A stretch of DNA of 32,000 nt, taken from Trichodesmium erythraeum IMS101 (GTDB lineage Bacteria; Cyanobacteriota; Cyanobacteriia; Cyanobacteriales; Microcoleaceae). Where the stretch lies: the NCBI RefSeq assembly GCF_000014265.1, contig NC_008312.1:3600001-3632000 (forward strand). The letters are read 5' to 3'. The translations under genes and the position numbers were made by a program. Of the stretch, positions 515 through 17,300 are shown one piece after another. Every line of letters begins with the position of its first letter. Position 1 is the stretch's first letter. A model generated the notes under the pieces. That model was not told the origin of the DNA. It made no database searches and saw only the letters and a list, made by a program, of their open reading frames with translations.

Positions 515-1087
515 ATGGCTCTTATAGATATATGGGAAAAAAGCACTGAAATTAGGAAAGATGAGGTGCTACAGATTCACGAGACAGGTAAAGAAGAGAA
601 GAAGCAAAGGCAAGATGTCATTGTTCAAAGGCAAAATGAGGTGCAAGTTATTCATAATGAAGCTTTAGAAGAGAAGAATCAAAGGCAAGACGTCATTGTT
701 AAAAGGCAAAATGAGGTGCAAGTTATTCATAATGAAGCTTTAGAAGAGAAGAAGCAAAGGCAAGATGTCATTGTTGAAAGGCAAAATGATACAAAAGCTG
801 ATCATGAAAAAGCTGTAGCAGATAAGTCCCAAAGGCAAGACGTCATTGTTCAAAGGCAAAATGATACGAAAGCTGATCATGAAAAAGCTGTAGCAGATAA
901 GTCCCAAAGGCAAGATGTCATTGTTGAAAGGCAAAATGATACGAAAGCTGATCATGAAAAAGCTCTAGCTGACAAGAAGCAAAGGCAAGATGAAAAGGAT
1001 GAACGGAGATCCTACGTTTGGGGTTATAAAGCTGGAATTGAAACAAAACAAACGAGTAGTAATGATTCATATCAGCAAATAGCATAA
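515..1087 (+). CDS. Tandem-repeat protein with about 5.5 x 25-aa (75-nt) repeats, highly charged and Q/R/E/K-rich. Function unknown; candidate GvpC-like gas-vesicle surface protein.
   Basis: 190-aa ORF. Repeat units are EEKKQRQDVIVQRQNEVQVIHNEAL (x2) and ADKSQRQDVIV(Q/E)RQNDTKADHEKAV (x3), then a partial unit. The period is exactly 75 nt, so the frame is preserved. It lies at the 5' side of the gvp genes. No sequence similarity to Anabaena-type 33-aa GvpC repeats that I can confirm by eye. Confidence 0.7.
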   Translation: MALIDIWEKSTEIRKDEVLQIHETGKEEKKQRQDVIVQRQNEVQVIHNEALEEKNQRQDVIVKRQNEVQVIHNEALEEKKQRQDVIVERQNDTKADHEKAVADKSQRQDVIVQRQNDTKADHEKAVADKSQRQDVIVERQNDTKADHEKALADKKQRQDEKDERRSYVWGYKAGIETKQTSSNDSYQQIA

Positions 1088-1652: not shown

Positions 1653-3533
1653 ATGTATTCCTTTGATAATCTGAACTTAGTAATGTTTAGTGGCAAAGGA
1701 GGCGTGGGAAAAACTACAAATTCTTGTGCTTTTGCTGGCCATTGGGCAAAAAAATCTCCTAATGAAAAGGTCTTGTTAATTTCTACTGATCCTGCACACT
1801 CTTTAGGAGATGTATTGCAAATAAGTGTTACAGATACACCAAGACCTTTAGAAGATTTACCTAATCTTTTAGTCAGAGCTTTAGATGTTAATCTTCTGCT
1901 TGAAGAATTTAAAAAACGTTACGGCGATGTCCTAGAAGTAATTGTAGAGCGAGGTAGTTTTGTTGAGGGGGGAGACCTGACTCCAGTATGGGATTTAGAT
2001 TGGCCAGGATTAGATGAATTAATGGCTTTACTGGAAATACAAAGGCTTTGTAACGAAAAAGTAGTTGATCGCGTAGTAGTGGACATGGCTCCGAGCGGTC
2101 ATACTCTAAACTTATTCAAACTAATGGATTTTTTGGATACTTTTCTCAATTCTCTAGAGCTTTTTCAAGAGAAACATAAATATATAAAGAAAAGCTTCTC
2201 AGGTTCTTATATACCAAATGAAGTTGATGAAGTATTACAAAATCTTAAGGATGAATTAGCAGCAGGTCGTCATTTATTACAAAATTCATCTAATACGGCT
2301 TGTTTAGTTGTAGCACTACCTGAACCGATGAGTTTTCGAGAAACTCAGAGGTTTTTAAGTTCTTTGGAAGAGATCAAAATTCCTTACGCTGGTATTGTTG
2401 TCAATCAAATTGTTGTAGATAAAGATGGTAATAGCGATCGCTACCACGAACAGCAAAAGTTAGTTAATGACTTTATTAAACTCGCGGGGGATAAACCAGT
2501 ATTTTTGGTACCCCAAGAAAAAGCTGAACCTTTAGGTGTAACTGCTTTAGAAAAGCTAACAAACCAAATTAATCAAGCAACAATTCAAGAATTCTCAACT
2601 TCTATAAGCTTCAATATTCAATGGCCAGAAAAGGTTCCTCCTGGTTTTACCGACTTTATCGGAAAGGGTAAACGTTTATTAATTGTTGGAGGAAAAGGAG
2701 GTGTAGGAAAGACTACGATAGCTGCTGCTATTAGTTGGGAAATGGCAAAACGATATCCCGAAAGACAAGTTAGGGCTGTTTCTATTGATCCTGCTCATTC
2801 TTTGGGAGATGCCTTTGGTATGGATCTATGTCATGAACCATCTATAATTAGTTCTAACCTTAAGGGACAAGAAATAGAAGCAAATAAAGTTCTTGAAAAA
2901 TTTCGAGAGGATTATTTGTGGGAATTAGCAGAAATGATGAGCGGAGAAAAATCCGAAAATCAAGCCTCTTTTGAAATGGCTTTTGCCCCTAAAGGATGGC
3001 GTCAAATTGTTGAGCAAGCTTTACCTGGTATTGATGAAATATTATCATTTATAACAGTTATTGAGTTATTGGAGGAAAAACAAGAAGATTTAATTGTTTT
3101 AGATACAGCTCCCACAGGGCATTTATTACGTTTTCTAGAAATGCCCACTGCAATACAGGATTGGTTAGGCTGGATTTTTAAATTATGGATAAAATATCAA
3201 GATATTATTGGTAAAACTGATTTTATGGGACGTTTGCGAACTTTACGCCAACGGGTGGTTAAAGCACAAAAAATTCTCAAAGATCCAAAAAAAACTGAGT
3301 TTATTGGAGTAATACGTCCTCAAAAAGGAGTTATTGCGGAAGCAGAACGTCTTTATAAATCTCTTGCAGAAATGCACATACCACAAAATTATTTAGTTTT
3401 AAACTGTTTTACCTCTAATAGCGTTATCCCTACTGACCAATTTCCGGGGGTACAATTTGTTTGTATGCCAATGTTACCTCGTTCAATTGAACCTATTGAA
3501 CAAATTAAAGGAGCAGCTACTTATATATTCTAA
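1653..3533 (+). CDS. arsA: Two-domain ArsA/Get3-family (SIMIBI class) P-loop ATPase
   Basis: 626 aa with two homologous halves. N half: FSGKGGVGKTT, STDPAHSLGDVL, VVDMAPSGHTLNLF. C half: GGKGGVGKTT, SIDPAHSLGDAF, VLDTAPTGHLLRFL. These are the ArsA P-loop, DPAHS and DTAPTGH signatures. The symbol is given as a family name only; no other ars genes are nearby. Confidence 0.9.
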   Translation: MYSFDNLNLVMFSGKGGVGKTTNSCAFAGHWAKKSPNEKVLLISTDPAHSLGDVLQISVTDTPRPLEDLPNLLVRALDVNLLLEEFKKRYGDVLEVIVERGSFVEGGDLTPVWDLDWPGLDELMALLEIQRLCNEKVVDRVVVDMAPSGHTLNLFKLMDFLDTFLNSLELFQEKHKYIKKSFSGSYIPNEVDEVLQNLKDELAAGRHLLQNSSNTACLVVALPEPMSFRETQRFLSSLEEIKIPYAGIVVNQIVVDKDGNSDRYHEQQKLVNDFIKLAGDKPVFLVPQEKAEPLGVTALEKLTNQINQATIQEFSTSISFNIQWPEKVPPGFTDFIGKGKRLLIVGGKGGVGKTTIAAAISWEMAKRYPERQVRAVSIDPAHSLGDAFGMDLCHEPSIISSNLKGQEIEANKVLEKFREDYLWELAEMMSGEKSENQASFEMAFAPKGWRQIVEQALPGIDEILSFITVIELLEEKQEDLIVLDTAPTGHLLRFLEMPTAIQDWLGWIFKLWIKYQDIIGKTDFMGRLRTLRQRVVKAQKILKDPKKTEFIGVIRPQKGVIAEAERLYKSLAEMHIPQNYLVLNCFTSNSVIPTDQFPGVQFVCMPMLPRSIEPIEQIKGAATYIF

Positions 3534-3599
3534 GATAGAATGATATGAGTTTTGCTAACTTTTTTTTATGTGGACTTAATGTCTATAAAAATCTTCTAA

Positions 3600-4016
3600 A
3601 TGTTTACTAGCCAACAGGTTTATTTATTAGCTATGAATAATTCAGCAAGACGTATAAGTTTTTCAAAAAACCAGAGCATTGTACCTCGGAAAAAATATGA
3701 CTCAAGTACATATTTAAATATATATCAAAGTGTTGTCAGGAAGGAACATTTAAGCAGAGAAATGAACAGAATACAAGAACGTTGTGATCAAATAAAAGAA
3801 GAAATTGCTTTTCTTGATAAAAAAATAAAAAATGAAAAAATGACACTCAAAGATCAAAAAGTAGAAGAAATAAACGAAGAAAAAGAAAGTAAATCATCAG
3901 AAATAAATGAAGAAAAAAAAAGTAAACCATCTTATCAACCTAAAATTAATGAGTTAAAAAATCAGACATCTATGCCAGTCCAATCAAAATTCAAAACTAT
4001 TAATTTCGGGTATTAG
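3600..4016 (+). CDS. Hypothetical K/E-rich coiled-coil protein with a basic N-terminus; possibly GvpV-like
   Basis: 138-aa ORF. The central segment (EHLSREMNRIQERCDQIKEEIAFLDKKIKNEKM) is heptad-like and is followed by the low-complexity repeat EEINEEKESKSS / EINEEKKSKPS. Its 3' end is co-duplicated upstream of gvpN2 (7780-7937). The GvpV call rests on remembered architecture only. Confidence 0.5.
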   Translation: MFTSQQVYLLAMNNSARRISFSKNQSIVPRKKYDSSTYLNIYQSVVRKEHLSREMNRIQERCDQIKEEIAFLDKKIKNEKMTLKDQKVEEINEEKESKSSEINEEKKSKPSYQPKINELKNQTSMPVQSKFKTINFGY

Positions 4017-4109
4017 TAATTAATTATTACCCCTTCATTAATTAACGATTACCTCTGCTTTTTGATGCTTGATATCTCCAAGTGCATCAGAGCTCTGGTT
4101 CAAGTTAAT

Positions 4110-4153
4110 CTTATGGGTATTACGGTATCACCTTATGGGTATTACGGTATCAC
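4110..4153. promoter_or_regulatory. Perfect 2 x 22-nt direct repeat (cttatgggtattacggtatcac) about 50 nt upstream of the gvpN1 start
   Basis: Read directly from the sequence. The gvpN2 upstream region carries a single degenerate unit (tttagggctattacagtactac, about 8072-8094). A conserved taggagg Shine-Dalgarno lies 9 nt before the TTG start in both copies. Confidence 0.4.
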
Positions 4154-4201
4154 ATCTAAAACGTTTATGATAATGTTTAAATATTAGGAGGAAATAATAC
4201 T

Positions 4202-5137
4202 TTGACTACTGTACTTAATGTCTCACCTGATAGATTTGTCAGCACCCCTGGTGTTGAACGTGTAACTCAACGCGCTTCTCGTTATTTAGAATCTGGTTAC
4301 TCAGTTCACTTGCGCGGTCCCGCAGGAGTCGGTAAAACAACTCTCGCATTACACTTGGCTCATTTACGTCAGCAACCTATTTTTTTAATGATTGGGGATG
4401 ACGAGTTTAAAACTTCAGATTTAATCGGTAATAAGTCAGGATATACAAGGAAAAAACTTGTAGATAATTACATCCACACTGTATTAAAAGTTGAAGATGA
4501 ACTGAGAGATAATTGGATTGATTCTAGGTTAACCTTAGCTTGTAAGGAAGGCTTCACTCTGATTTATGACGAATTTAACCGCTCTCGTCCAGAGGTAAAC
4601 AATGTTTTACTCTCTGTTTTAGAAGAAAAAATGTTGGTTTTACCACCTAGCCAAAATCAATCTGAATATATTCAGGTTCATCCCCAGTTTAGAGTAATCT
4701 TAACTTCCAACTCTGAGGAGTGGACAGGAGTTCATGCAACTCAAGATGCTTTATTAGACAGGGTGGTGACAATTGGAATGGAACAACCTGATATTTCGAC
4801 TGAGCAGAATATTGTCATACAGAAAACAGGAATAAACCCTCTGAAAGCTGAAGTCATAATTAAGCTGGTGCGCAGTGTTCGCCAAAGAGTGGACAAAGAA
4901 GATTTAGGTAGTTTGCGTTCTGCTCTAATGATTTCTAAAGTTTGTCACGACCATGATATTCCTCTAGATGGTAAAGATTCTAGTTTTTCAGATCTTTGTG
5001 CTGATATATTAATATCACGACCTAATTTGCCTCGGCAGGAAGCTCTGCAGCAACTAGATGAAGTTCTAGAGGAATTTTTCCCCGCTGATCAACCTTCAAG
5101 TTCTGATGTTGGGCTCGAAAAAGAGGGTAGTTTATGA
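4202..5137 (+). CDS. gvpN: Gas vesicle protein GvpN (AAA+/MoxR-like ATPase), copy 1
   Basis: 311 aa with Walker A GPAGVGKTT. It carries long blocks typical of cyanobacterial GvpN: FGDDEFKTSDLIGN.SGYTRKK.VDNYIH, RLTLACKEGFTL.YDEFNRSRPEVNNVLLS, HATQDALLDR. TTG start preceded by AGGAGG. Confidence 0.95.
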   Translation: MTTVLNVSPDRFVSTPGVERVTQRASRYLESGYSVHLRGPAGVGKTTLALHLAHLRQQPIFLMIGDDEFKTSDLIGNKSGYTRKKLVDNYIHTVLKVEDELRDNWIDSRLTLACKEGFTLIYDEFNRSRPEVNNVLLSVLEEKMLVLPPSQNQSEYIQVHPQFRVILTSNSEEWTGVHATQDALLDRVVTIGMEQPDISTEQNIVIQKTGINPLKAEVIIKLVRSVRQRVDKEDLGSLRSALMISKVCHDHDIPLDGKDSSFSDLCADILISRPNLPRQEALQQLDEVLEEFFPADQPSSSDVGLEKEGSL

Positions 5138-5445
5138 AGACAAGCGCTAATATAGCTACATCAGCCAGTGGAAATGGTCTAGCAGATGTACTGGAAAGAG
5201 TGCTGGATAAAGGAGTTGTAATTGCTGGAGATATTTCTGTTTCTATTGCTAGTACAGAACTTCTGAATATTAAAATCCGCCTGTTAATATCCTCGGTGGA
5301 GAGAGCTAAAGAAATTGGAATTAACTGGTGGGAAAGCGATCCCTATTTCAGTAGTCAAAACAATTCTTTGGTGCAGGCCAATGAAAAACTTCTTGAGCGA
5401 GTTGCTTCTCTCGAATCAGAGATAAAAGCACTTCGTAGTAATTAA
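5134..5445 (+). CDS. gvpJ: Gas vesicle protein GvpJ (GvpA/J/M family), copy 1
   Basis: 103 aa. LADVLERVLDKGVVIAGDISVSIASTELLNIKIRLLISSVERAKEIGINWWESDP matches the GvpJ core. The start overlaps the gvpN stop in ATGA, which implies translational coupling. Confidence 0.9.
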   Translation: MKTSANIATSASGNGLADVLERVLDKGVVIAGDISVSIASTELLNIKIRLLISSVERAKEIGINWWESDPYFSSQNNSLVQANEKLLERVASLESEIKALRSN

Positions 5446-5595: not shown

Positions 5596-5820
5596 ATGGT
5601 AACTAATACAGCAAAAAAAATCAAAACTAGTTTGAAAAATATCAAAACTCAGGGAGATATTAAAACTCCGGGAGATATTAAAGCTCTGGAAAATATTTTG
5701 AGCAGTTCGGCTGTTCGTGGTTGTTTGTCTTGTGAATCTATAAAAGGTGATAAAACTCGCGTGCTTGAAACAGCTAGAATCTTAGTTGCACAAAATAGAG
5801 TTTTAAGTCAACAAAAATAA
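5596..5820 (+). CDS. Small basic CxxC protein at the position occupied by gvpX (between gvpJ and gvpK) in Microcystis-type clusters
   Basis: 74-aa ORF. The paralogous ORF at 9393..9575 keeps the frame and the core NIL.S...RGC.SC.SI.G....V..TRIL.A...V.SQ. The aa(a/g)gtagaaaa sequence before the ATG is conserved in both copies. Confidence 0.5.
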   Translation: MVTNTAKKIKTSLKNIKTQGDIKTPGDIKALENILSSSAVRGCLSCESIKGDKTRVLETARILVAQNRVLSQQK

Positions 5821-6013: not shown

Positions 6014-6475
6014 ATGTCTCTAGAAAATTCCCCAGAGGAATCTTTAATTGTTCCCATTGACAAATCTAAAAGTAACCCCGAAGCCGGATTAGCTCCATTA
6101 TTATTAACAGTAATTGAGTTACTAAGGGAACTAATGCAAGCTCAAGTAATTCGGAGGATGGATGCCGGAATACTTAGTGATGAACAATTAGAACGTGCAG
6201 CTGAAGGTCTACGACAGTTAGAGGAACAAGTGATTAAGCTCTGCAAAGTTTTTGATATTCCCACCGAAGATTTGAATTTGGATTTAGGTGAAATTGGTAC
6301 TTTGTTACCCAAGTCGGGAGAGTATTATCCAGGAGAAAAATCTGAGAATCCCTCTGTTTTAGAGCTGTTAGACAGAATTTTGAACACCGGAGTAGTTTTG
6401 GATGGCACTGTAGATTTGGGATTAGCAGAGTTAGATTTGATTCATGCTCGTTTACGCTTGGTTTTGACTGCCTAG
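6014..6475 (+). CDS. gvpK: Gas vesicle protein GvpK
   Basis: 153 aa. AGLAPLLLTVIELLRELMQAQVIRRM...LERAAEGLRQLEEQ...LNLDLGEIGTLLP.SG.YYPG...PSVLELLDR.LNTG.V.DG..DLG.A..DLIHA.LRLVLT is the GvpK signature. Confidence 0.95.
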   Translation: MSLENSPEESLIVPIDKSKSNPEAGLAPLLLTVIELLRELMQAQVIRRMDAGILSDEQLERAAEGLRQLEEQVIKLCKVFDIPTEDLNLDLGEIGTLLPKSGEYYPGEKSENPSVLELLDRILNTGVVLDGTVDLGLAELDLIHARLRLVLTA

Positions 6476-7227
6476 CCAATTTTTTAAGGCTAAAAAACAA
6501 ATACCCGATATAAAATTAAAGTGCATTCTGGCACACGAGTATAAGAATCAGGAGATTTTTTTGGCGTTGGTAAACAGCAAGATGAACTGAGTGAATAGGT
6601 AGAGCAAAATAGAGTATATAGGTTGTGCTGGAGCTAAATAAGTTTATGCAATGTTCAGAGTATGCTAGTAAATATAGAGGAATTAGGGGAGTTACTTGGG
6701 TTGCCTGCAGCACAATTATTAACTGGGTTAAACTTGGAGAAAAACTGTTACCTTATACATAAGGTTCTCTAAGTCATCCCAGAATTTCCAGGGTTTGATG
6801 AGTTACAAACTTTATGTCTCCCCAAAAAAAATCAAGTTTTGATTGAGATAGTCGTTGAATAACTTTCTCCAGAGGTTCTTGGTCGGTTAATCAAAAACCG
6901 TAGTTCCGAAATCTTTATTTAACTCTGGGAAGCGATCGCTTTTTAGCAATACTATTTCTGGGTCAGTGATGAAAACCCAGATTCATGAACATTTATTCCT
7001 GAGCAGGAGTGGGTTGTTAGTAAGACCTATATAACAAGAGTGTAAGGAAAAAACACACTCGTTTAGGATACTACTTAGTTAGTTTGACTGCAACGGAAAA
7101 CGCCGTCCTATTTGAAATCTGTATAAACGCTGAAGCATTCCATAAGACTTTTAAATTCATGATCTCAAATTTGTAGATGTACCCCTTCGGTGCCTGATTG
7201 ATCTTTAAATTTACCAATGCCATTTTT

Positions 7228-7643
7228 TTAGCAGCCAACATATGGCTTAAGTAAGTTAGCAGTCAATATATAGTTTAAGTAAGAATAATCAGGCTAATAA
7301 AGTAAGTTTATTGTCATAGTGTGTAATTTAAGTTAGCAGCCAATATATAGTTTAAGTAAGAATAACCAGGCTAATAAAGCAAGTTTATTTTCATAGTGTG
7401 TAATTATTGATAATTTTTTGTGTGTCTAAATTTGATACTTCCTCTTACTTGTTGTCTGTGAAAAAATTGGATATATGATTTAAGTTCTGAAGATCTTATT
7501 TAAGTTTAAAGCAAGTTTATTGTCATAGTGTGTAATTATTGATAATTTTTTGTGTGTCTAAATTTGATACTTCCTCTTACTTGTTGTCTGTGAAAAAATT
7601 GGATATATGATTTAAGTTCTGAAGATCTTATTTAAGTTTAAAG
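7228..7643. repeat. Composite non-coding tandem repeat array at the junction between the two gvp duplicate units
   Basis: The motif ttagcag(c/t)caa(c/t)atat(g/a)g(c/t)ttaagtaag occurs at 7228, 7256 and 7333. A 77-nt unit (7256-7332) is repeated at 7333-7409. A 132-nt unit (about 7380-7511) is repeated almost perfectly at 7512-7643. Confidence 0.85.
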
Positions 7644-7665
7644 TTAGGTATGAGATTAGGGTGCA

Positions 7666-7735
7666 CCGATCAAGTATTACAAAATTTTCAGGATAAATTA
7701 GCAACAGGTCATCATTTATTAAAATAACATTTATT
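7666..7735 (+). pseudogene. Relic fragment of the ArsA-family ATPase gene
   Basis: caagtattacaaaattttcaggataaattagcaacaggtcatcatttattaaaataa aligns with arsA nt about 2230-2290 (gaagtattacaaaatcttaaggatgaattagcagcaggtcgtcatttattacaaaat). At protein level this is VLQNFQDKLATGHHLLK* versus VLQNLKDELAAGRHLLQ. Confidence 0.65.
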
Positions 7736-7779
7736 AAGATAACTGATAAAAGCTCAAAAATTGATATAATGAAATTAAG

Positions 7780-7937
7780 GATAATCTGGCTGTTCTTAAT
7801 AAAGAAATAAAGAAAAAATTTAAGCAAGAATAAAAGCTTAAATAATCTCATCAACTTAAAATTAATTAATTAATTAATTATACATTAACACTACGAGAAT
7901 CACAATTCCAAGTAATTACTTTAGGGTATTAGTAACT
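7780..7937 (+). pseudogene. Relic of the 3' part of ORF 3600..4016
   Basis: gctgttcttaataaagaaataaagaaaaaa matches gcttttcttgataaaaaaataaaaaatg. aatctcatcaacttaaaattaat matches catcttatcaacctaaaattaat. aatcacaattccaagtaattactttagggtattagtaa matches aatcaaaattcaaaactattaatttcgggtattagtaa. The order and orientation match copy 1, with an internal deletion. Confidence 0.5.
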
Positions 7938-8131
7938 AATTATTAATTATTAACTCTGCTTTATTATACTTGCTCCTTACAAGTGCATTAGAGCTTTGGT
8001 GTGAGTTCATCTCATTGAATGCTGTAGCTATGAGTTTGAACTATAACTTGCCCCTACTATCGTTAGTAACATTTTAGGGCTATTACAGTACTACATCTAA
8101 AAATATTTATACTTTAGGAGGAAATAATACT

Positions 8132-9067
8132 TTGACTACTGTACTTAATGTCTCACCTGATAGATTTGTTAGCACCCCTAGTGTTGAACGTGTAACTCAA
8201 CGCGCTTCTCGTTATTTAGAATCCGGTTACTCAGTTCACTTGCGCGGTCCCGCAGGAGTCGGTAAAACAACTCTCGCATTACACTTGGCTCATTTACGTC
8301 AGCAACCTATTTTTTTAATGATTGGGGATGATGAGTTTAAAACCTCAGATTTAATCGGTAATAAGTCAGGATATACAAGGAAAAAACTTGTAGATAATTA
8401 CATCCACACTGTATTAAAAGTTGAAGATGAACTGAAGCATAATTGGATTGATTCTAGGTTAACCTTAGCTTGTAAGGAAGGCTTCACTCTGATTTATGAC
8501 GAATTTAACCGCTCTCGTCCAGAGGTAAACAATGTTTTACTCTCTGTTTTAGAAGAAAAAATGTTGGTTTTACCACCTAGCCAAAATCAATCTGAATATA
8601 TTCAGGTTCATCCCCAGTTTAGAGTAATCTTAACTTCCAACTCTGAGGAATGGACAGGAGTTCATGCAACTCAAGATGCTTTATTAGACAGGGTGGTAAC
8701 AATTGGCATGGGACAACCTGATATTTCGACTGAGCAGAATATCATCATACAGAAAACAGGAATAAACCCTCTGAAAGCTGAAGTCATAATTAAGCTGGTG
8801 CGCAGTGTTCGCGAAAGATTAGAGACAGAAGATTTAGGTAGTTTGCGTTCTGCTCTAATGATTTCTAAAGTTTGTCACGACCATGATATTCCTCTAGGTG
8901 GTAAAGATTCTAATTTTTCAGATCTTTGTGCTGATATATTAATATCACGAGCTAATTTGCCTCGGCAGGAAGCCCTGAAGCAACTAGATGAAGTTCTAGA
9001 GGAACTTTTCCCGGCTGATCAACTTTCAATTTCTGATATTGGGCTCAAAAAAGAGGGTAGTTTATGA
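8132..9067 (+). CDS. gvpN: Gas vesicle protein GvpN, copy 2
   Basis: 311 aa. By my count it has 18 substitutions relative to copy 1 (about 94% identity), mostly in the C-terminal third. It has the same TTG start and AGGAGG site. Confidence 0.95.
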   Translation: MTTVLNVSPDRFVSTPSVERVTQRASRYLESGYSVHLRGPAGVGKTTLALHLAHLRQQPIFLMIGDDEFKTSDLIGNKSGYTRKKLVDNYIHTVLKVEDELKHNWIDSRLTLACKEGFTLIYDEFNRSRPEVNNVLLSVLEEKMLVLPPSQNQSEYIQVHPQFRVILTSNSEEWTGVHATQDALLDRVVTIGMGQPDISTEQNIIIQKTGINPLKAEVIIKLVRSVRERLETEDLGSLRSALMISKVCHDHDIPLGGKDSNFSDLCADILISRANLPRQEALKQLDEVLEELFPADQLSISDIGLKKEGSL

Positions 9068-9378
9068 AGACAAGTGCTAATATAGCTAAATCAGCTGGTG
9101 GAGATAGTCTAGCAGATGTGCTCGAAAGAGTCTTGGATAAAGGAATCGTAATTGCTGGAGATATTTCTGTTTCCATTGCTAGTACAGAACTTCTGAATAT
9201 TAAAATCCGCCTGTTAATATCCTCTGTCGAGAGAGCCAAAGAAATTGGAATTAACTGGTGGGAAAGCGATCCCTCTTTGAGTAGTCAAAACAATTCTTTG
9301 GTGCAGGTCAATCAAAAACTTCTTGAGCGAGTTGCTTCTCTTGAGTCAGAGATAGAAGCGCTTAAATACTCACAATAA
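9064..9378 (+). CDS. gvpJ: Gas vesicle protein GvpJ, copy 2
   Basis: 104 aa, about 87% identical to copy 1 with the same GvpA/J core. It shows the same ATGA overlap with gvpN2. Confidence 0.9.
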   Translation: MKTSANIAKSAGGDSLADVLERVLDKGIVIAGDISVSIASTELLNIKIRLLISSVERAKEIGINWWESDPSLSSQNNSLVQVNQKLLERVASLESEIEALKYSQ

Positions 9379-9392
9379 AAGTAGAAAAAAAA

Positions 9393-9575
9393 ATGAAAAT
9401 TAATAAAGTCAAAAATAATCAACTCAAAAGAATAAAAACTAGGCAAAATATTCTTAATAGTACGGGTCTTCGTGGTTGTTCCTCTTGTAACTCTATTACT
9501 GGACAAAATAATCGGGAAGTTGAAAAAACTAGAATCTTAATTGCACGAGCTAAAGTTTCGAGTCAAAAAAGATAA
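9393..9575 (+). CDS. Small basic CxxC protein, diverged paralog of ORF 5596..5820
   Basis: 60-aa ORF starting 15 nt after the gvpJ2 stop. The shared core is NIL.S..LRGCSSCNSI.G...V..TRIL.A. About 45% aa identity to copy 1 over the aligned C-terminal part. Confidence 0.45.
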   Translation: MKINKVKNNQLKRIKTRQNILNSTGLRGCSSCNSITGQNNREVEKTRILIARAKVSSQKR

Positions 9576-9771
9576 CTTCAACAATGGTGCTTTGCTCAAT
9601 AGTAACCTTATCAGGTATTGTTAGTTGAGTGCTTCACACATAAGGGTTCAGGCAATAGAGAATTAAAAAACTTTATATCAAGGTTTGAGTAATTACTATT
9701 GCCTCCTATATTCTAACTATACCAGAGCAAAGCACTATAACTTAACGTTTTCTTAAGTAGGATTATTTATT

Positions 9772-10130
9772 CTATCCCTAGAAACGTCCTCAAAGGAATC
9801 TTTAATAGTTCTTAATTGACAAATCTAAAAGTAACTCCAAAGCCACATTGGCTCCATTATTTATTATTAACTGTGATTGAGTTACTACGGTAACTAATGC
9901 AAGCTCAAGTAATTTGGTGAATGGATGCCAGAATACTTAATAACAAACAATTAGACCCTGCTACTGAAAGTCTACGACAGTTAGAGTAACAGGTGATTAA
10001 GTCCTGCAAAGTTTTTGATATTGGCACCTAAGATTTGAATTTGAATTTAGGTGAAATTGGTACTTTGTTACCCTATTCGAGAGAGTATTATCCAGGAGAA
10101 AAATCTGAGAATCTTTCTGTTTTAGAGCTA
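9772..10130 (+). pseudogene. gvpK: gvpK pseudogene: start codon lost, several in-frame stops, 3' truncated
   Basis: Collinear with gvpK nt 6014-6367. The ATG is replaced by cta (attctatccctagaaa versus attatgtctctagaaa). Stops occur at aat tga, cgg taa, gag taa and cct aag/taa. Homology ends at gttttagagcta. Confidence 0.85.
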
Positions 10131-10225
10131 ATTGCGAGCTAGTTTACCTAGGAAGAAAGCTCTGCAGCAAATAGATCAAGTTCTAAAGCATTTTTTTAGC
10201 CCTGCTCAACTATTGTTAAGTCATT
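10131..10225 (+). pseudogene. Relic of the gvpN 3' end fused directly to the truncated gvpK pseudogene
   Basis: agtttacctaggaagaaagctctgcagcaaatagatcaagttctaaagcattttttt..ccctgctcaactattgttaagtc aligns with gvpN1 nt about 5025-5105 (aatttgcctcggcaggaagctctgcagcaactagatgaagttctagaggaatttttccccgctgatcaaccttcaagttc). Confidence 0.6.
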
Positions 10226-10553: not shown

Positions 10554-12473
10554 TTATACACAGATGTCAGAATCAAAATTATTAGACTGTTTTTGACTCT
10601 TCAGAGCGTTGTAAGCATTTTCAAAGTCAGCACTTGTAATCTTGATATCATTTTCCTTAGAAGACTTAATTCCTTGAGCGCTATAACTACGAATTGCGGC
10701 TAAAGCAGCTTGATTAGTCAACAATGCCAAATCTGCTCCATTCCAACCTTCTGTACGACTTGCCCAATCTTCTAAATTGACTTCTTCCAGTGGGCGATCT
10801 TGATTATGAACCTTCAAAATTTCTAAACGACTAGCTTGATCTGGTAAGTCTACCTTGATTTGCAAATCCAATCTCCCCGCTCGAAGTAAAGCTGGGTCTA
10901 GAGCATCAGGACGATTAGTTGCTCCTACTAATAAGAGCTGAGTACAATCTCGCAAACCATCCAATTCCGTTAATAGTTGACCAACTAGGCGATCGCTCAC
11001 TCCTGAATCTCCCATCGTTTTACCACGAGCAGGAGCTAGAGTATCAATTTCATCTATGAAGATCACACAAGGTGAAACTTGTCTTGCCTTAGAGAAAAGT
11101 TCTCGTACTGCTTCTTCTGCCGCTCCTACCCATTTACTTAACAACTCTGGTCCATTTACCGCAATAAAATTAGCCTGTGCTTGAGAAGCAACAGCTTTGG
11201 CTAACAAAGTTTTTCCAGTTCCTGGTTCACCCCATAATAAAATTCCTTTAGGAGCTTTAGCTTTAGTCTTCTCATACAACTCTGGGTAGAGCAATGCACC
11301 TTCAACTGATTCTTGCAATTTTTGTTTAACAACATCGAGACCACCAATATGTTGCCAACTTACATTAGGTACTTCTACTGCCACAGACCTTAATATAGAA
11401 GGTTTAATTTCCTTAATTGCTCTGAGTAAGTCGCTTTGCAATAAACTCATATCTTCTGGAGTCTGAATATTTAAGTTCTCTAGGGATGGAACTTCACGAC
11501 GGAGAGCGAAATAAGCAGCTTTTTGACATACAGCCTTTAAGTCAGCACCCACTAAACCAACTGCTAAATCAGCAATTTCTTCCAAATCAACAGAATTATC
11601 TAATGGCATAGCTTTTGTCAGAATCTGCAAAATTTCTGAGCGTCCATCGCGATCTGGAACATGGAAATAAACCTCTTGGTCAAACCTCCCTGGACGACGA
11701 AGAGCTGGATCGATATGGTCTGGACGATTTGTTGCTGCTAATAGCAGGACACCCTCTAAAACTTCAAATCCATCCATCAGTCCCAAGAGTTGAGCGACTA
11801 ATCGCTTTTCGACTTCTCCCTCAACTTTACTGCGGTCTGGAGCAATGCTATCAATTTCATCAATGAAGATCAGACAAGGAGCAGATTTTTTGGCTTTGGC
11901 AAAAATATCCCGTAACTTTCCTTCTGCTTCTCCATAATATTTGCTCATCACTTCTGGTCCGTTGATGGCAATATAATTTAGCCCCAATTCTTCTGCTATT
12001 GCCTTAGCCGTCAGAGTTTTACCTGTACCTGGTGGTCCAACTAATAAAACTCCACGAGAAGGTTCAAGTCCTAATTTAGTCAACAGATCAGGTCGTTTGA
12101 GTGGGAGTTCTATAACTTCTCTTAATTCTTGAATTACTTCTGACATACCCCCGATATCTCTTAGGGTAGGTCTCAATTTAGTTTCTGGGGATGAGGTTGT
12201 AGAATTAGTTTTCTCTTGAGCTCTGTTTTGTGTTACACTATCTTTGTTTGGGGATTGAACAGTAAAATTAGTATCTTGTGAAGACTGTCCTGTTTGAGCT
12301 TGATAATTGCTTCTTCCCATTCCCCTCGGTATATTCCCATGCCTGGGAATATTTCTCATCGGTCCAGACTGTACCTCAAAGGAAGTTTTGATTTCTCCTG
12401 ATTTGGCTTTTTCTTCTAGAGTTTTTGCCAATTCTACTAGGTCTTTTACATCTAATCCAAAAAAATTATTCAT
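10554..12473 (-). CDS. CDC48/VCP-like ATPase with two AAA+ domains and a low-complexity Q/S/T-rich N-terminal region
   Basis: 639 aa. D1 has GVLLVGPPGTGKT and a Walker B IFIDEIDS. D2 has GILLWGEPGTGKT and IFIDEIDT. Second-region-of-homology motifs ATNRPD..DPALRRPGRFD and ATNRPDALDPALLRAGRLD are present. It has no canonical CDC48 N-domain; the first 120 aa or so appear disordered. Confidence 0.9.
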   Translation of the reverse strand: MNNFFGLDVKDLVELAKTLEEKAKSGEIKTSFEVQSGPMRNIPRHGNIPRGMGRSNYQAQTGQSSQDTNFTVQSPNKDSVTQNRAQEKTNSTTSSPETKLRPTLRDIGGMSEVIQELREVIELPLKRPDLLTKLGLEPSRGVLLVGPPGTGKTLTAKAIAEELGLNYIAINGPEVMSKYYGEAEGKLRDIFAKAKKSAPCLIFIDEIDSIAPDRSKVEGEVEKRLVAQLLGLMDGFEVLEGVLLLAATNRPDHIDPALRRPGRFDQEVYFHVPDRDGRSEILQILTKAMPLDNSVDLEEIADLAVGLVGADLKAVCQKAAYFALRREVPSLENLNIQTPEDMSLLQSDLLRAIKEIKPSILRSVAVEVPNVSWQHIGGLDVVKQKLQESVEGALLYPELYEKTKAKAPKGILLWGEPGTGKTLLAKAVASQAQANFIAVNGPELLSKWVGAAEEAVRELFSKARQVSPCVIFIDEIDTLAPARGKTMGDSGVSDRLVGQLLTELDGLRDCTQLLLVGATNRPDALDPALLRAGRLDLQIKVDLPDQASRLEILKVHNQDRPLEEVNLEDWASRTEGWNGADLALLTNQAALAAIRSYSAQGIKSSKENDIKITSADFENAYNALKSQKQSNNFDSDICV

Positions 12474-12620
12474 TTTTTAATTTTTAATAGTTGAAGTTAA
12501 TACTTTAGTCTATAAGCTATTCTATCACATTTAAGCGGCTCTAGTAAGTTATGATCATAAGTACAAATAAAATACAGAAAAAATGCAGAAAAAGTGATAC
12601 CTCTTCTTGATTTTAGTAAT

Positions 12621-12827
12621 GATGTGAACAAATAGACCAGACTTCTCTGCTCACAATTATTTTTTTCAGTGTAGCTTAATCAAAAAATTGTGTTAGCTAC
12701 ACAGGATAAGTATTCAGCTATTAGATGTGAACACATAGACTAGATTTCTCTGCTCACTATCATTTTGTTCAGTATAGCTTAATCAAAAAATTGTGTTAGC
12801 TACACAGAATAAGCATTAAGCCATTAG
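12621..12827. repeat. 2 x about 103-nt tandem repeat, each unit containing a hairpin (gtgtagc..gctacac), about 150 nt upstream of the AAA+ gene start
   Basis: gatgtgaaca(a/c)atagac(c/t)aga(c/t)ttctctgctcac..gt(g/a)tagcttaatcaaaaaattgtgttagctacacag(g/a)ataag.att.ag.(c/t)attag occurs at 12621-12723 and again at 12724-12827. Confidence 0.85.
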
Positions 12828-13721
12828 CGGTTAGCTCTACTACTTTTGAATGAATAAAACAAATTACTTTACTCAAAATAGCTTTTATACTTAACTCTTA
12901 ATTTTAATTCTTCCTCAATTCAAAAGTACTGACCAGTTGATTTGAGAATTGAGCATCAACAGAAAAGGAAACAATAGCTGTCAACAGTAGTATGTTTGCG
13001 AGGGTGAAAGTTATGAACCAGTCTTCCTCGCTTTCCACTTAATTATAACGCATTATTATTATTAGTATCTTACGGTTTACCCCCCAAGCTATAACCCATT
13101 ATGATTATTGGCATCTTACTTGGCCTAAAAACACCGGGATTTTTACCTAGCTGAATATCAAAGGTAGGTTAATGTTTTCGTTACGTAAGGCAACGCATTT
13201 CACATACTACTAACCAACCCCTATTCGGAGTGATTTGAGGTTGGTTACTTTTGCCTCTGTGCCCGTTTCTTGCCTTTAACTTCCAGTTTGCTAATAATTA
13301 ATTTATAATTTACTATAGCACTTATAACATATGTATTCAAAAAAAAACAACTAAAAAGTTGCCTTATACTAGATAGAGAGAGGCTTTCAACCCAGTTTTT
13401 TATCAAGACTCAACAGAGAAATTTAGTTGCTGTATAAAGAATTATCAAGGTCAATGGCATTGTAGAAAAAAAATTCACCAAACTCTGAGCGCAAAGTTAC
13501 ATCATAGATTGTAGACTTGTTCTAAGACAATAAGAAACTTTTGAAATTATGAGTAGGTAAGGGTTAAAATTTGTCTCTATCTAATAAAATTTGCATTTTC
13601 TCTCAAATCAACTGTATTGAGAAGCTTGGAGTTACTTTTACAAAGTTTAGTATTTTAGTATTATAGTTAGGCTATTTGATCACTATACACTTAACTCGTA
13701 ACTCCTCACTCAATCAATATT

Positions 13722-13979
13722 CTATGCATCTTCCTCTTCTTCTTTAAGCTTTTGTTCTTCTAAGGCCTGAATTGCTAATAAAAGCTCCTCCTCCTGATCT
13801 TCAAAATCTTCTTCCGAAATCTCCCCCATGTCAAAAGCAAGTTGAAGAGTTAGTAGCTTTTTACTAAGATTTTCTGTCTCATCTATTTCTGTATCAACTT
13901 GTTCTTGAAGTTTTTTCCCTAACCACGTAACTCCTTCTAGTGGACCACTAATAGGCAAGGTTAATAAACGTAAAAGCAT
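13722..13979 (-). CDS. gvpG: Gas vesicle protein GvpG
   Basis: 85 aa. MLLRLLTLPISGPLEGVTWLGKKLQEQVDTEIDETENLSKKLLTLQLAFDMGEISEEDFEDQEEELLLAIQALEE matches the GvpG family pattern: PxxGPxxGVxW, LxxLQLxFDxGEIxEEEF and an acidic tail. Confidence 0.9.
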   Translation of the reverse strand: MLLRLLTLPISGPLEGVTWLGKKLQEQVDTEIDETENLSKKLLTLQLAFDMGEISEEDFEDQEEELLLAIQALEEQKLKEEEEDA

Positions 13980-14310
13980 AAGATAATCTCCTTAAATTAG
14001 TTCTATAAGTAAAAACACCCCCACTAGTTACTAACTCTAGCTACTTAACTAATTTTAGCAACTTAAATTAAGGGATTAACTATATGATATACTTATTACA
14101 TAATCATATGTACTAATGTACCTAAAAATTAGAAATTAAAATTCTAAATAATTATTTTGTCTTAACAATTTGTTATAATTTAAAGATTGACATTCAAGTT
14201 GAGATTAAAATAAATTTTGAATAAAAAAAGCATTTAGTTTTGAACACAAAGGGCATTAAGGCATCTGATTGATCACCCAACTAAGTCAAAAAATCATTAA
14301 ATTATTAATT

Positions 14311-15111
14311 ATGGAATTTGGTTTCTACGTTTATGGTCTAATCCAGGAAAAAGGTAAAATGGATGAATCGAAAGATGAATCGAAAAATGGATTAAAAGGA
14401 TCGAATGAATCGAAAGATGAGTTAAAAGGATTGGATAAAGAAGATGTAAAAATTCAAGACGTTGATGAATTTGCAGTGCTTTACTCCATTGCCAAAAAGG
14501 AACGTTATCTAGCAAGTCGTCGTAATTTAATTACCCATGAAAAAGTTCTTGAGTCAGCGATGGAAGCAGGTTATAGAAATTTACTGCCGATGCAATTTGG
14601 TTTAGTAGTTTCTGAGTGGGAAAAATTTTCTCAAGATTTTACTAAACCTTGTGAACAGCAAATTCATGATCTATTCACTAAGTTAAAAAATAATCGAGAA
14701 GTAGGGATAAAAATATATTGGGAGCCAGATGCAGAACTGGAAAAGTTACTGGAAAACGACAAAGATCTAAAAGAGGAAAGAGATAGTTTAAAAGATAAAA
14801 AATTAACCATGGATCAGGTCATTGATATTGGGCAGAAAATTGAACAAGGAATGAATGAACGAAAACAAAATATTATTGAAATTTTTCAAGAAACTCTAAA
14901 TAAAATGGCGATTGAAGTAATAGAAAATGAGGTTCAAACAGAAAAAATGATTTATAATGCAGCTTATCTCATACCTTGGGATCAAGAAGAAGATTTTGGT
15001 GAGAAAGTAGAAACTATTGATAGTAAATTATGTGAACGGGGAAACTTTACAATTCGCTACAATAGTTTTACTGCTCCTTATAATTTTGCTCGAATTAGAC
15101 AACAAGACTGA
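14311..15111 (+). CDS. gvpF: Gas vesicle protein GvpF (GvpL/GvpF family)
   Basis: Strong GvpF blocks are present: YLASRRNLITHEKVLESAMEAGYRNLLPMQFGLVV, REVGIKIYW, MIYNAAYLIPWDQEEDF, IRYNSFTAPYNFA. I prefer the ATG at 14311 (MEFGFYVYGL, the usual family N-terminus) over the TTG at 14269 in the ORF track. Confidence 0.9.
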   Translation: MEFGFYVYGLIQEKGKMDESKDESKNGLKGSNESKDELKGLDKEDVKIQDVDEFAVLYSIAKKERYLASRRNLITHEKVLESAMEAGYRNLLPMQFGLVVSEWEKFSQDFTKPCEQQIHDLFTKLKNNREVGIKIYWEPDAELEKLLENDKDLKEERDSLKDKKLTMDQVIDIGQKIEQGMNERKQNIIEIFQETLNKMAIEVIENEVQTEKMIYNAAYLIPWDQEEDFGEKVETIDSKLCERGNFTIRYNSFTAPYNFARIRQQD

Positions 15112-15411: not shown

Positions 15412-16089
15412 ATGTCATATTATGTCTACGGTTTTCTATATCTACCCGAATCATGTTTAGCATTGCCAAAAGGTATGGAAAAGGAAGTTGAGCTAGTTCC
15501 ATATCAAAATATTGCTGCTGTAGTTGAAGCAAATGTATCTATTGAAGCAATACAGGAAACAGAAGAAAAATTACTAGAAGCAATATTAGCCCATGATCGT
15601 GTAGTTAGAGAAATATTTCAGCAAGTATCTATGCTACCACTAAGATTTGGTAATGCTTTTGCTCTGCGAGAAAATATTATTAATGATTTACAAAATAATC
15701 AGCAACAATATCTGAATATTTTAACTAAACTGCAACAACAAGCAGAATATACTATTACTTTTACTCCAGTTTCTTATCCTTCTACCCTAGAAGTTAGTAA
15801 AGTTCGTGGCAAAGCTTATTTATTAGCCAAAAAACAACAGTTTGAACAACAACAAGCTTTTCAAACTAAGCAACGTCAACAGTGGGAAAATATACGTCAG
15901 TTAATATTCAAGAATTATCCCAAAGCAGTTTTTAGAGATAGTACGGAAAGTAAAATTAAGCAAGTACATCTGTTGGCCAATCGTGATGCCAGAGTTATAA
16001 CTACTGAAGAACTATCAACTTGGCAAACTGAGTGTTCTTATTGGCAAATTACTTTGAGCGAACAACTTCCTCCTTATCATTTTGTCTGA
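15412..16089 (+). CDS. GvpL/GvpF-family gas vesicle protein (second paralog)
   Basis: 225 aa. The N-terminus YYVYGFLYLPE, the LLEAILAHDRVVREIFQQVSMLPLRFGN block and the position beside gvpF fit the family. The Q-rich central part is diverged. Confidence 0.7.
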   Translation: MSYYVYGFLYLPESCLALPKGMEKEVELVPYQNIAAVVEANVSIEAIQETEEKLLEAILAHDRVVREIFQQVSMLPLRFGNAFALRENIINDLQNNQQQYLNILTKLQQQAEYTITFTPVSYPSTLEVSKVRGKAYLLAKKQQFEQQQAFQTKQRQQWENIRQLIFKNYPKAVFRDSTESKIKQVHLLANRDARVITTEELSTWQTECSYWQITLSEQLPPYHFV

Positions 16090-16505: not shown

Positions 16506-17300
16506 ATGAGCGAACATTATCGTCAAGAGTTAGTTCGTGATGGTCAACGTCGTTTTGATGAGTGGCACGGTAAGTTTCTGAAGTATCAGAAAAAATATCT
16601 GAAGTATCAGAAAAAATATCTGAAGTATCAGAAAGAATTTACCCAGTCAGTTGATAATGAGCATTATCGTCAAGAGTTAGTTCGTGATGGTCAACGTCGT
16701 TTTGATGAGTGGCACACTGAGTTTCTGAGGTATCAGAAAGAATATCTGAAGTATCAGAAAGAATTTATCGAGTCAGTTGATAATGAGCATTATCGTCAAG
16801 AGTTAGTTCGTGATGGTCAACGTCGTTTTGATGAGTGGCACACTGAGTTTTTGAGGTATCAGAAAGAATTTATCGAGTCAGTTGGTAATGAGCATTATCG
16901 TCAAGAGTTAGTTCGTGATGGTCAACGTCGTTTTGATGAGTGGCACACTGAGTTTCTGAGGTATCAGAAAGAATTTATCCAGTCACTTGATAATGAACAG
17001 AATAAACAAAAGTTAGTTGGTGATCGTGAAACTCGTTATAAAAAGAAAGAGTCACAGGACAAACTTAGAGTGAAAAAATCTAAGCAACCAGCTAAGAATA
17101 AACCTGATCAACAAAAGTTAGGTGCTGCTGGTAAAAATCCTCGTAAGGAGAAAGAGTTGAACGATAAATTTGGAGGGGAGAAACTTCGGGAGTCAATTGC
17201 TGGTGAACATTATCGTCAAATGTTAGTTCGTGATGGTCAACGTCGTTTTGATGAGTGGCACGAGTCATATCACGGATATATAAAAAAGTTGCGCGGGTAG
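16506..17300 (+). CDS. Tandem-repeat protein with a 35-aa core repeat and 7-aa heptad expansions; candidate GvpC-type gas-vesicle protein
   Basis: 264 aa. The unit EHYRQELVRDGQRRFDEWHTEFLRYQKEF(I/T)(E/Q)S(V/L)(D/G)N occurs four times, with unit lengths of 49, 42, 35 and 35 aa. The length differences are 2, 1, 0 and 0 extra YLKYQKK heptads of 21 nt each. A K-rich linker of about 70 aa follows, then a fifth half-unit (EHYRQMLVRDGQRRFDEWH). It lies at the 3' edge of the gvp island. Confidence 0.75.
   Translation: MSEHYRQELVRDGQRRFDEWHGKFLKYQKKYLKYQKKYLKYQKEFTQSVDNEHYRQELVRDGQRRFDEWHTEFLRYQKEYLKYQKEFIESVDNEHYRQELVRDGQRRFDEWHTEFLRYQKEFIESVGNEHYRQELVRDGQRRFDEWHTEFLRYQKEFIQSLDNEQNKQKLVGDRETRYKKKESQDKLRVKKSKQPAKNKPDQQKLGAAGKNPRKEKELNDKFGGEKLRESIAGEHYRQMLVRDGQRRFDEWHESYHGYIKKLRG

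Follow-up and report, generated by a model that had tools for sequence, protein, structure and literature searches.

A predicted tandem Get3-like ATPase within the gas-vesicle gene cluster of Trichodesmium erythraeum IMS101

Why does an ATPase gene of the ArsA/Get3 family lie among the gas-vesicle genes of Trichodesmium erythraeum IMS101? The question is raised by a stretch of 32 kilobases (kb; NC_008312.1, positions 3,600,001-3,632,000), here called the window and numbered from its first letter, the first 17 kb of which are occupied by a gas-vesicle (gvp) cluster. Physically within this cluster, at 1653-3533 on the plus strand, a gene with an ATG start encodes a protein of 626 amino acids (aa) with two Pfam ArsA_ATPase domains (E 1.3e-106), a tandem, pseudo-dimeric member of the SIMIBI ATPases. 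A sequence-only reading of the window had taken this ATPase for a co-duplicated member of the gas-vesicle module that may chaperone the hydrophobic proteins GvpA and GvpJ. Judging from sequence, we favour with modest confidence the view that the ATPase is an accessory, non-shell component of the module, a Get3-like pseudo-dimer that would probably clamp hydrophobic Gvp segments.

Family membership of the ATPase

The intact, two-halved architecture described in the sequence-only reading is borne out by Pfam and by regular-expression searches. Each half carries the full set of motifs, with GKGGVGKTT at residues 14 and 347, DPAHSLGD at residues 46 and 379, and the D(M/T)AP(S/T)GH motif as DMAPSGH at residue 144 and DTAPTGH at residue 484; between the halves (residues 9-251 and 342-584), 72 of 232 aligned positions are identical. 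Two SIMIBI nucleotide-binding domains in one chain are a property shared with ArsA. The protein belongs to the TRC40/GET3/ArsA subfamily (TIGR00345, 355.6 bits against a cutoff of 135), and it is the ArsA/Get3 family that it matches over its full length, models of MinD and ParA giving weak matches to the P-loop region. Among PDB sequences, Chlamydomonas ARSA1 is its top match. The ATPase is 78% identical to an Okeania protein, and identical sequences were seen solely in marine metagenomes, including those of Tara Oceans.

In the AlphaFold2 model of the ATPase (predicted local distance difference test score 81.5, predicted template modelling score 0.82), long helices span residues 148-183, 190-210, 488-519 and 523-543. 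From switch II to the strand that follows, a stretch that in Get3 makes up the client groove and lid, there are 64 residues in the first half and 57 in the second, compared with 63 in yeast Get3 and with 50 and 38 in the two halves of ArsA. Judged by length alone, the ATPase carries the TRC40-type insert of the Get3/TRC40 helix 7-9 region, and in its second half this insert holds invariant aromatic residues (W504, W507, F509 and W512). The CxxC motif of Get3 is absent, the cysteines lying at residues 25, 133, 217, 393, 585 and 604, and the tandem fusion takes the place of the CxxC zinc homodimerisation. Comparison of structures does not discriminate between ArsA and Get3: the best whole-chain matches are ArsA structures (query-normalised template modelling (TM)-scores of 0.60-0.70), because ArsA is also tandem, and the best matches of the single halves are TRC40/Get3. 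Against archaeal TRC40 the identity of each half is about 30%, with target-normalised TM-scores of 0.82-0.84; against ArsA structures it is 20-22%.

Could the protein be a genuine arsenite or antimonite pump ATPase that came to lie in the gvp cluster by chance? Some sources label it 'arsenite-transporting ATPase', and its whole fold agrees with ArsA structures to the extent just given. Against this stand its scores with the ArsA equivalog TIGR04291 (185.4 bits, cutoff 650) and with NF041417 ArsA_halo (213.8, cutoff 800), as well as the loss of all the cysteines that bind As(III) and Sb(III) in Escherichia coli ArsA (C113, C172 and C422). In the HMMER alignment C113 corresponds to W113 of the ATPase and the position of C172 has no cysteine; C422 falls on G459 with HMMER and MAFFT, or on V453 on manual re-registration. 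The comparison with the ArsA cysteine triad that the sequence-only reading had proposed gave a uniform answer: with an Enterococcus ArsA from an arsR-arsD-arsR-arsA plasmid context as reference, C117, C176 and C419 are replaced by tryptophan, a non-cysteine residue and glycine in 25 of 25 cyanobacterial orthologs. The same reading was also right to report no arsR, arsB, acr3, arsC or arsD in the 32 kb, insofar as no Pfam match to ArsR, ArsB, ACR3, ArsC or ArsD turned up among the 20 open reading frames (ORFs) scanned, which included every long non-shadow ORF, if not all short or shadow ones. The ATPase gene thus has no ars operon context of arsB/acr3, arsD and arsR, and at ten related loci (nine cyanobacterial, one acidobacterial) its counterparts have gvp or AAA genes as neighbours and in no case an ars gene. 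By these sequence characters the ATPase is not an arsenic-pump subunit, and the probability that we leave to such a role is negligible.

Since the 626-aa protein passes TIGR00345 and fails the ArsA equivalog, lacks the cysteine triad, has inserts of Get3 length and has halves that are nearer to TRC40, it is best regarded as a Get3-like pseudo-dimer. Its features assign it to a cyanobacterial tandem-domain Get3-like group, namely 'Cluster 4' of the two-domain ArsA homologues of Castillo and Saier (2010), which includes the 626-aa protein Ter2 of T. erythraeum IMS101 (PMC2963123), and, by those same features, 'Group 7' of a 2019 survey of Get3 (PMC6593721). With the former it shares its cyanobacterial origin, a length within about 620-640 aa, two domains, a tryptophan at C113 and a position embedded in gvp genes.

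Linkage to gas-vesicle genes and an AAA partner

The link between this ATPase family and gvp genes was already published in 2010 and is, as a genomic observation, 15 years old. Genes of Cluster 4 were found near gvp genes in several phyla, their products have C113, C172 and C422 replaced, and they were proposed to energise a step of gas-vesicle biogenesis (PMC2963123). A phyletic-profile study of 2017 recovered one presence/absence cluster made up of eight Gvp proteins and the same ArsA type, an orthogroup present in no more than about 25% of the cyanobacterial genomes (PMC5464585). In Nodularia, nsp15480, listed as ArsA, is numbered directly after the gvp genes nsp15380-15470 (PMC3610870).

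Our own sample consists of ten cyanobacterial loci, the window included, in which a gvp gene within 10 kb counts as linkage. In six of the ten the ATPase ortholog is linked, in several arrangements. The order ArsA-gvpV-gvpN-J-X-K of the window recurs in Okeania, there interrupted by an insertion element (ArsA-gvpV-[IS605]-gvpN-J-X-K). In Trichocoleus the ArsA-like gene is divergent from the AAA gene and lies between gvpA and a gvpF/L gene, while Nostoc UHCC 0870 has gvpA-A-C-N-J-K-F-G-V-W-ArsA-AAA, an order shared by plasmid p4 (35.8 kb) of Nostoc sphaeroides, and a JGI genome has gvpJ-K-F-G-W-ArsA. Outside the cyanobacteria, a metagenome-assembled genome (MAG) of the Vicinamibacterales (Acidobacteria) encodes a 32%-identical tandem homolog between gvpJ/A/F/G and gvpJ/K. 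Within 10 kb, gvp genes are absent from the other four cyanobacterial loci: the AAA and ArsA-like genes form a divergent pair in Leptolyngbya BL-A-14 and Oculatella FACHB-28, the AAA gene lies two genes from the ArsA-like gene in Stenomitos, and the ArsA-like gene stands alone in Planktothrix serta. From the ten loci and the acidobacterial MAG, linkage appears frequent, resistant to rearrangement and spread over more than one phylum, but not obligatory. The neighbours sampled here uphold the gvp module of the sequence-only reading as a recurrent association and not as a universal one.

Three further observations concern these loci. The Nostoc sphaeroides plasmid p4 (NZ_CP031945.1) carries a complete gvp set together with the ArsA-like and AAA genes; typed as non-mobilizable, it might serve to spread the module horizontally as a whole. 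The element in Okeania, at 12437-14376 of that locus, is of the IS605 family (OrfB/TnpB and a Y1 transposase) and separates the gvpV-like ORF from gvpN. In Leptolyngbya and Stenomitos, genes of the fraC-fraD-fraE type follow the ArsA-like gene.

The AAA gene of the window (10554-12473, minus strand) encodes a Cdc48/VAT-like double-AAA ATPase. Its match to the CDC48 model TIGR01243 (685.6 bits) spans only profile positions 167-712, and because these cover D1 and D2 only, the protein lacks the N domain. Walker A motifs lie at residues 146 and 415, and aromatic pore loops at 178 (KYYG) and 447 (KWVG). Orthologs with 65-79% identity are encoded near the ATPase gene in seven other loci; the two genes directly adjoin in five of the nine other cyanobacterial loci and lie within 10 kb of each other in two more, as in the window. 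The loci of Leptolyngbya, Oculatella and Stenomitos, all three with no gvp gene within 10 kb, are among these, and no Cdc48-like gene lies near the acidobacterial homolog. These neighbour counts mark the ArsA-like and Cdc48-like pair as the most stable cyanobacterial unit, and no description of the pairing was found in the literature searched.

A partly decayed duplicate and a diverged gvpV

Downstream of the ATPase gene, on the same strand, lie ORF138 (3600-4016), gvpN1 (4202-5137, with a TTG start after AGGAGG; TIGR02640, 383.9 bits against a cutoff of 266.8; Pfam AAA_5), gvpJ1 (5134-5445, Pfam Gas_vesicle domain), a small ORF of 74 aa (5596-5820, tblastn) and gvpK (6014-6475, Pfam GvpK and Gas_vesicle). 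Beyond a spacer rich in repeats (about 6500-7660) there follows a second, partly decayed copy of this arsA-to-gvpK unit (7668-10210, plus strand). It begins with a relic of the ATPase gene (7668 to about 7736, equivalent to 2226-2295), of which blastn aligns 7668-7724 with 2226-2282 at 88% identity over 57 nucleotides (nt; E 7e-15). A decayed relic of the 3' end of ORF138, detected as a repeat family at 7789-7945 on the plus strand, is contiguous with the region upstream of gvpN2; its first part matches weakly (7789-7819 to 3807-3841, E 0.006), and from within the ORF138 3' end through gvpN2 and gvpJ2 the block 7826-9363 is 88% identical to 3910-5433. Both gvpN2 (8132-9067, 311 aa) and gvpJ2 (9064-9378, 104 aa) are intact plus-strand ORFs, the former differing from gvpN1 by 10 synonymous and 18 nonsynonymous codons. 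By tblastn, the 74-aa ORF is kept in the second copy at 9432-9572 (49% identity) as well as in Okeania (45%), and gvpK2 (9772-10133, plus strand) is a pseudogene with four in-frame stops across three frames, frameshifts and a 3' truncation. Abutting it on the same strand is an isolated fragment of a gvpN 3' end (10135 to about 10210; repeat family and tblastn, 56% aa identity), and may stem from a third repeat unit, itself partial, or from a deletion spanning one.

The two relics upstream of gvpN2 had been noticed in the sequence-only reading; their order and orientation are as given there, and the coordinates agree within about 10-50 nt. As in its ancestral unit arsA-orf138-gvpN-gvpJ-smallORF-gvpK, arsA and ORF138 did belong to what was duplicated. 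A single block, arsA-gvpV-gvpN-gvpJ-smallORF-gvpK, was copied, after which the second arsA, gvpV and gvpK decayed, leaving gvpN2 and gvpJ2 alone intact. Contigs of three independent marine metagenome assemblies show the relics in the same setting at 98-99% identity; the duplication is therefore real and not an assembly artefact. That the ATPase gene was carried along in it with ORF138 stands, but this tells us that the genes were neighbours when the duplication took place, not what they do.

A different structure is present in one metagenome contig of the assembly ENA ERZ23499267, where a single hybrid unit arsA-ORF138-gvpN is followed by gvpJ and the small ORF of the copy-2 type and then by the AAA gene. 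The hybrid junction lies near window positions 4238/8114; recombination may have removed one repeat in a variant of the population, or else the assembly collapsed the two copies. Non-coding tandem repeats (77 nt x2, 132 nt x2 and 103 nt x2) occur at 7228-7643, in the spacer directly upstream of the arsA relic, and at 12621-12827; the 132-nt unit is single-copy in other metagenome contigs.

ORF138 itself had been described as a K/E-rich coiled-coil ORF. Its existence and its coiled-coil core are upheld, and its status as a nameless ORF is not. Translation probably begins at the ATG at 3633 (Met12), the equivalent of which opens the Okeania homolog. Single-sequence searches of Pfam, NCBIfam and a large protein database returned Trichodesmium matches only (96% identity to a protein of Trichodesmium sp. 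ALOHA_ZT_67), and tblastn revealed a 114-aa Okeania ORF, 35% identical, directly 3' of the ATPase gene. Members of the resulting family have a coiled-coil core in common, and their SKFKTIxxGY tail is invariant. A hidden Markov model (HMM) built from Trichodesmium and Okeania members only matches a Nostoc 104-aa 'gas vesicle protein' in hmmsearch (E 1.9e-11 and 5e-9), and hhalign aligns the family with this protein at a probability of 97.8% (E 7.3e-13). Profile homology thus connects ORF138 with GvpV, the 104-106-aa protein encoded between gvpG and gvpW, a name first given in Microcystis and assigned to the Nostoc protein by the gene order gvpG-V-W. On the strength of this homology and of the Nostoc gene order, ORF138 is most simply a diverged, relocated gvpV and therefore not a new gene. 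Like cyanobacterial GvpV it has an N-terminal basic PK-x-S-x-MPR, an L-x-x-Y-x-x-V/I coiled-coil core and a terminal tyrosine; unlike it, ORF138 is longer, with a K/E-rich insertion and the SKFKTIxxGY tail (15-19% identity), and has its place ahead of gvpN, on the strand of that gene, and not between gvpG and gvpW. No terminator-like site was found along arsA-ORF138-gvpN on the plus strand, which is weak evidence (the promoter and terminator scans performed at the level of shuffled sequence); the ATPase is probably co-expressed with gvpV and gvpN.

The remaining gvp genes of the window flank these units. A gvpC-like repeat protein (515-1087, plus strand) has a period of 75 nt (25 aa) in 5.3 copies; gvpG (13722-13979) is on the minus strand, and two genes of the GvpL/F family follow on the plus strand (14269-15111 and 15412-16089). 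Cyanobacterial gvpK encodes a GvpK domain plus a C-terminal Gas_vesicle domain of the GvpA/J type, consistently so in the window and in four other loci, including Okeania. At 16506-17300 a second repeat protein of 264 aa with 105/126-nt repeats (EHYRQELVRDGQRRFDEWH) matches the FRAT-87 model weakly and may be a second outer-surface vesicle protein.

Proposed function and known systems

What could a Get3-like ATPase do for gas vesicles? In the reading that we favour, it would act as an ATP-dependent clamp, grasping and letting go of very hydrophobic stretches of GvpA, of GvpJ or of the GvpA-like GvpK tail, so that these would be kept soluble or passed to the growing vesicle; in cyanobacteria, the clamp would work jointly with the N-domain-less Cdc48-like unfoldase. 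The chaperoning of GvpA and GvpJ suggested in the sequence-only reading is plausible. We further speculate, much more tentatively, that the two ATPases could make up a triage system dedicated to the shell proteins of gas vesicles. GvpA-family proteins would be disaggregated by the unfoldase or pulled out by it, for instance from collapsed vesicles or aggregates; the Get3-like clamp would then keep hold of the hydrophobic segments of these proteins and bring them to vesicles that are growing. In the literature searched, neither a paper with both 'gas vesicle' and 'Get3' nor an experimental test of any family member was found; because there was no such paper, the explicit idea of a Get3-type holdase for GvpA and GvpJ may be unstated, though it combines two published observations.

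Several points weigh against a specific role in gas vesicles. Leptolyngbya, Oculatella, Stenomitos and Planktothrix serta make up the four of ten loci that lack a gvp gene locally, within 10 kb; the second copy of the ATPase gene was not retained after the duplication; and the ATPase and AAA sequences (58-62% and 65-68% identity) are at least as conserved as core Gvp proteins (GvpF, for example, 45-48%), which would fit a wider role too. Furthermore, gvpABC-NJKFG-VW of Anabaena 7120 alone rendered E. coli buoyant, with irregular vesicles (PMC7204071), and since this set is without the ATPase, the latter is not strictly required for vesicles.

Some of these observations would suit a general triage pair for hydrophobic or tail-anchored proteins, a Get3-like holdase and a Cdc48-like unfoldase serving membrane or thylakoid biogenesis in filamentous cyanobacteria, with the gvp adjacency as inherited synteny. 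The occurrence of the ArsA-AAA pair at three loci with no gvp gene within 10 kb and of the ATPase alone, away from gvp genes, in Planktothrix serta agree with such a role, as do the high conservation of both proteins and the tendency of bacteria with tandem Get3 to have more predicted tail-anchored proteins (PMC6593721). A general function is harder to reconcile with an orthogroup that is confined to about a quarter of cyanobacterial genomes and clusters with Gvp proteins by presence and absence (PMC5464585), with an ATPase gene that rides with the gvp set on the 35.8-kb Nostoc plasmid, and with a linkage that outlasts several rearrangements, recurs in Acidobacteria with no Cdc48-like gene nearby and extends to further phyla (PMC2963123). 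We consider this explanation unlikely.

The ATPase might also have no hydrophobic clients at all and act as a nucleotide-dependent factor of assembly or positioning, for example as a MinD/ParA-style switch that would recruit or regulate GvpN, GvpF or GvpV at the vesicle or would space the vesicles in the cell. The SIMIBI class of the protein and its weak MinD/ParA matches in the P-loop region are compatible with this, its gene lies directly upstream of gvpV-gvpN in the window and in Okeania, and the Serratia genes that bear the names gvpN and gvpV are both needed where bicones turn into cylinders (PMC4982088). The full-length match, however, is to ArsA/Get3 and not to MinD/ParA, and the helical inserts with the invariant W504, W507, F509 and W512 resemble a Get3-type client site, which makes a switch of this kind quite improbable, more so than a general triage pair.

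The clamp reading, which we continue to prefer, would have practical consequences. Gas vesicles are engineered as acoustic and magnetic resonance imaging reporters, and their heterologous assembly is often inefficient or irregular; if the ATPase and its Cdc48-like partner do handle GvpA-family proteins, adding the ATPase could improve the yield or shape of such vesicles. A bacterial Get3 homolog would then also have, for the first time, a defined client, and this client would not be a membrane protein.

Among the known systems, ArsA (E. coli R773, 1f48; L. ferriphilum, 9nbo) has the same tandem two-domain fold and is the best whole-chain structural match (query-normalised TM-score 0.70), but the ATPase differs from it in the missing metalloid cysteine triad, the longer helical inserts, the absence of ars partners and the failed equivalog HMM. 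With Get3/TRC40 (yeast, 2woj and 4xtr; M. thermautotrophicus, 3zq6; M. jannaschii, 3ug6) the ATPase shares the SIMIBI core, the motifs and helices 7-9 of Get3 length, its halves reaching 25-30% identity and target-normalised TM-scores of 0.75-0.84. Get3, however, is a homodimer with a CxxC zinc site and the partners Get1/2/4/5, whereas the ATPase is a tandem fusion with no CxxC; no such partners are known in bacteria. The client of Get3 is a membrane protein, and that proposed for the ATPase would be a shell protein of a soluble organelle. Chlamydomonas reinhardtii ARSA1 (PDB 5zme/5zmf), which is reported to target tail-anchored proteins to the chloroplast, is a single-chain pseudo-dimer as well (161 bits, or 219 with a profile), but it is eukaryotic, about 24% identical and superposes poorly on the model (root-mean-square deviation about 16 A, query-normalised TM-score 0.60).

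Closer still are the bacterial groups. Group 7 comprises cyanobacterial tandem Get3 homologs that, like the ATPase, have a double domain with TRC40-type inserts in both halves, no CxxC or CxC and a cytoplasmic location; the survey left their function open and is silent on gas vesicles (PMC6593721), whereas the context of the ATPase here is gvp. Cluster 4 (PMC2963123) agrees with it in length, tandem architecture, phylum, the tryptophan at C113, the absence of the other triad cysteines and the embedding in gvp genes, with no essential difference. What the present analysis contributes beyond the Cluster 4 paper are the duplication relics, the GvpV-like ORF138 and the AAA pairing. The differential retention after duplication, the usual pairing of ArsA-like and AAA genes in cyanobacteria and the identity of ORF138 as GvpV, predicted from profile homology, are additions to the literature.

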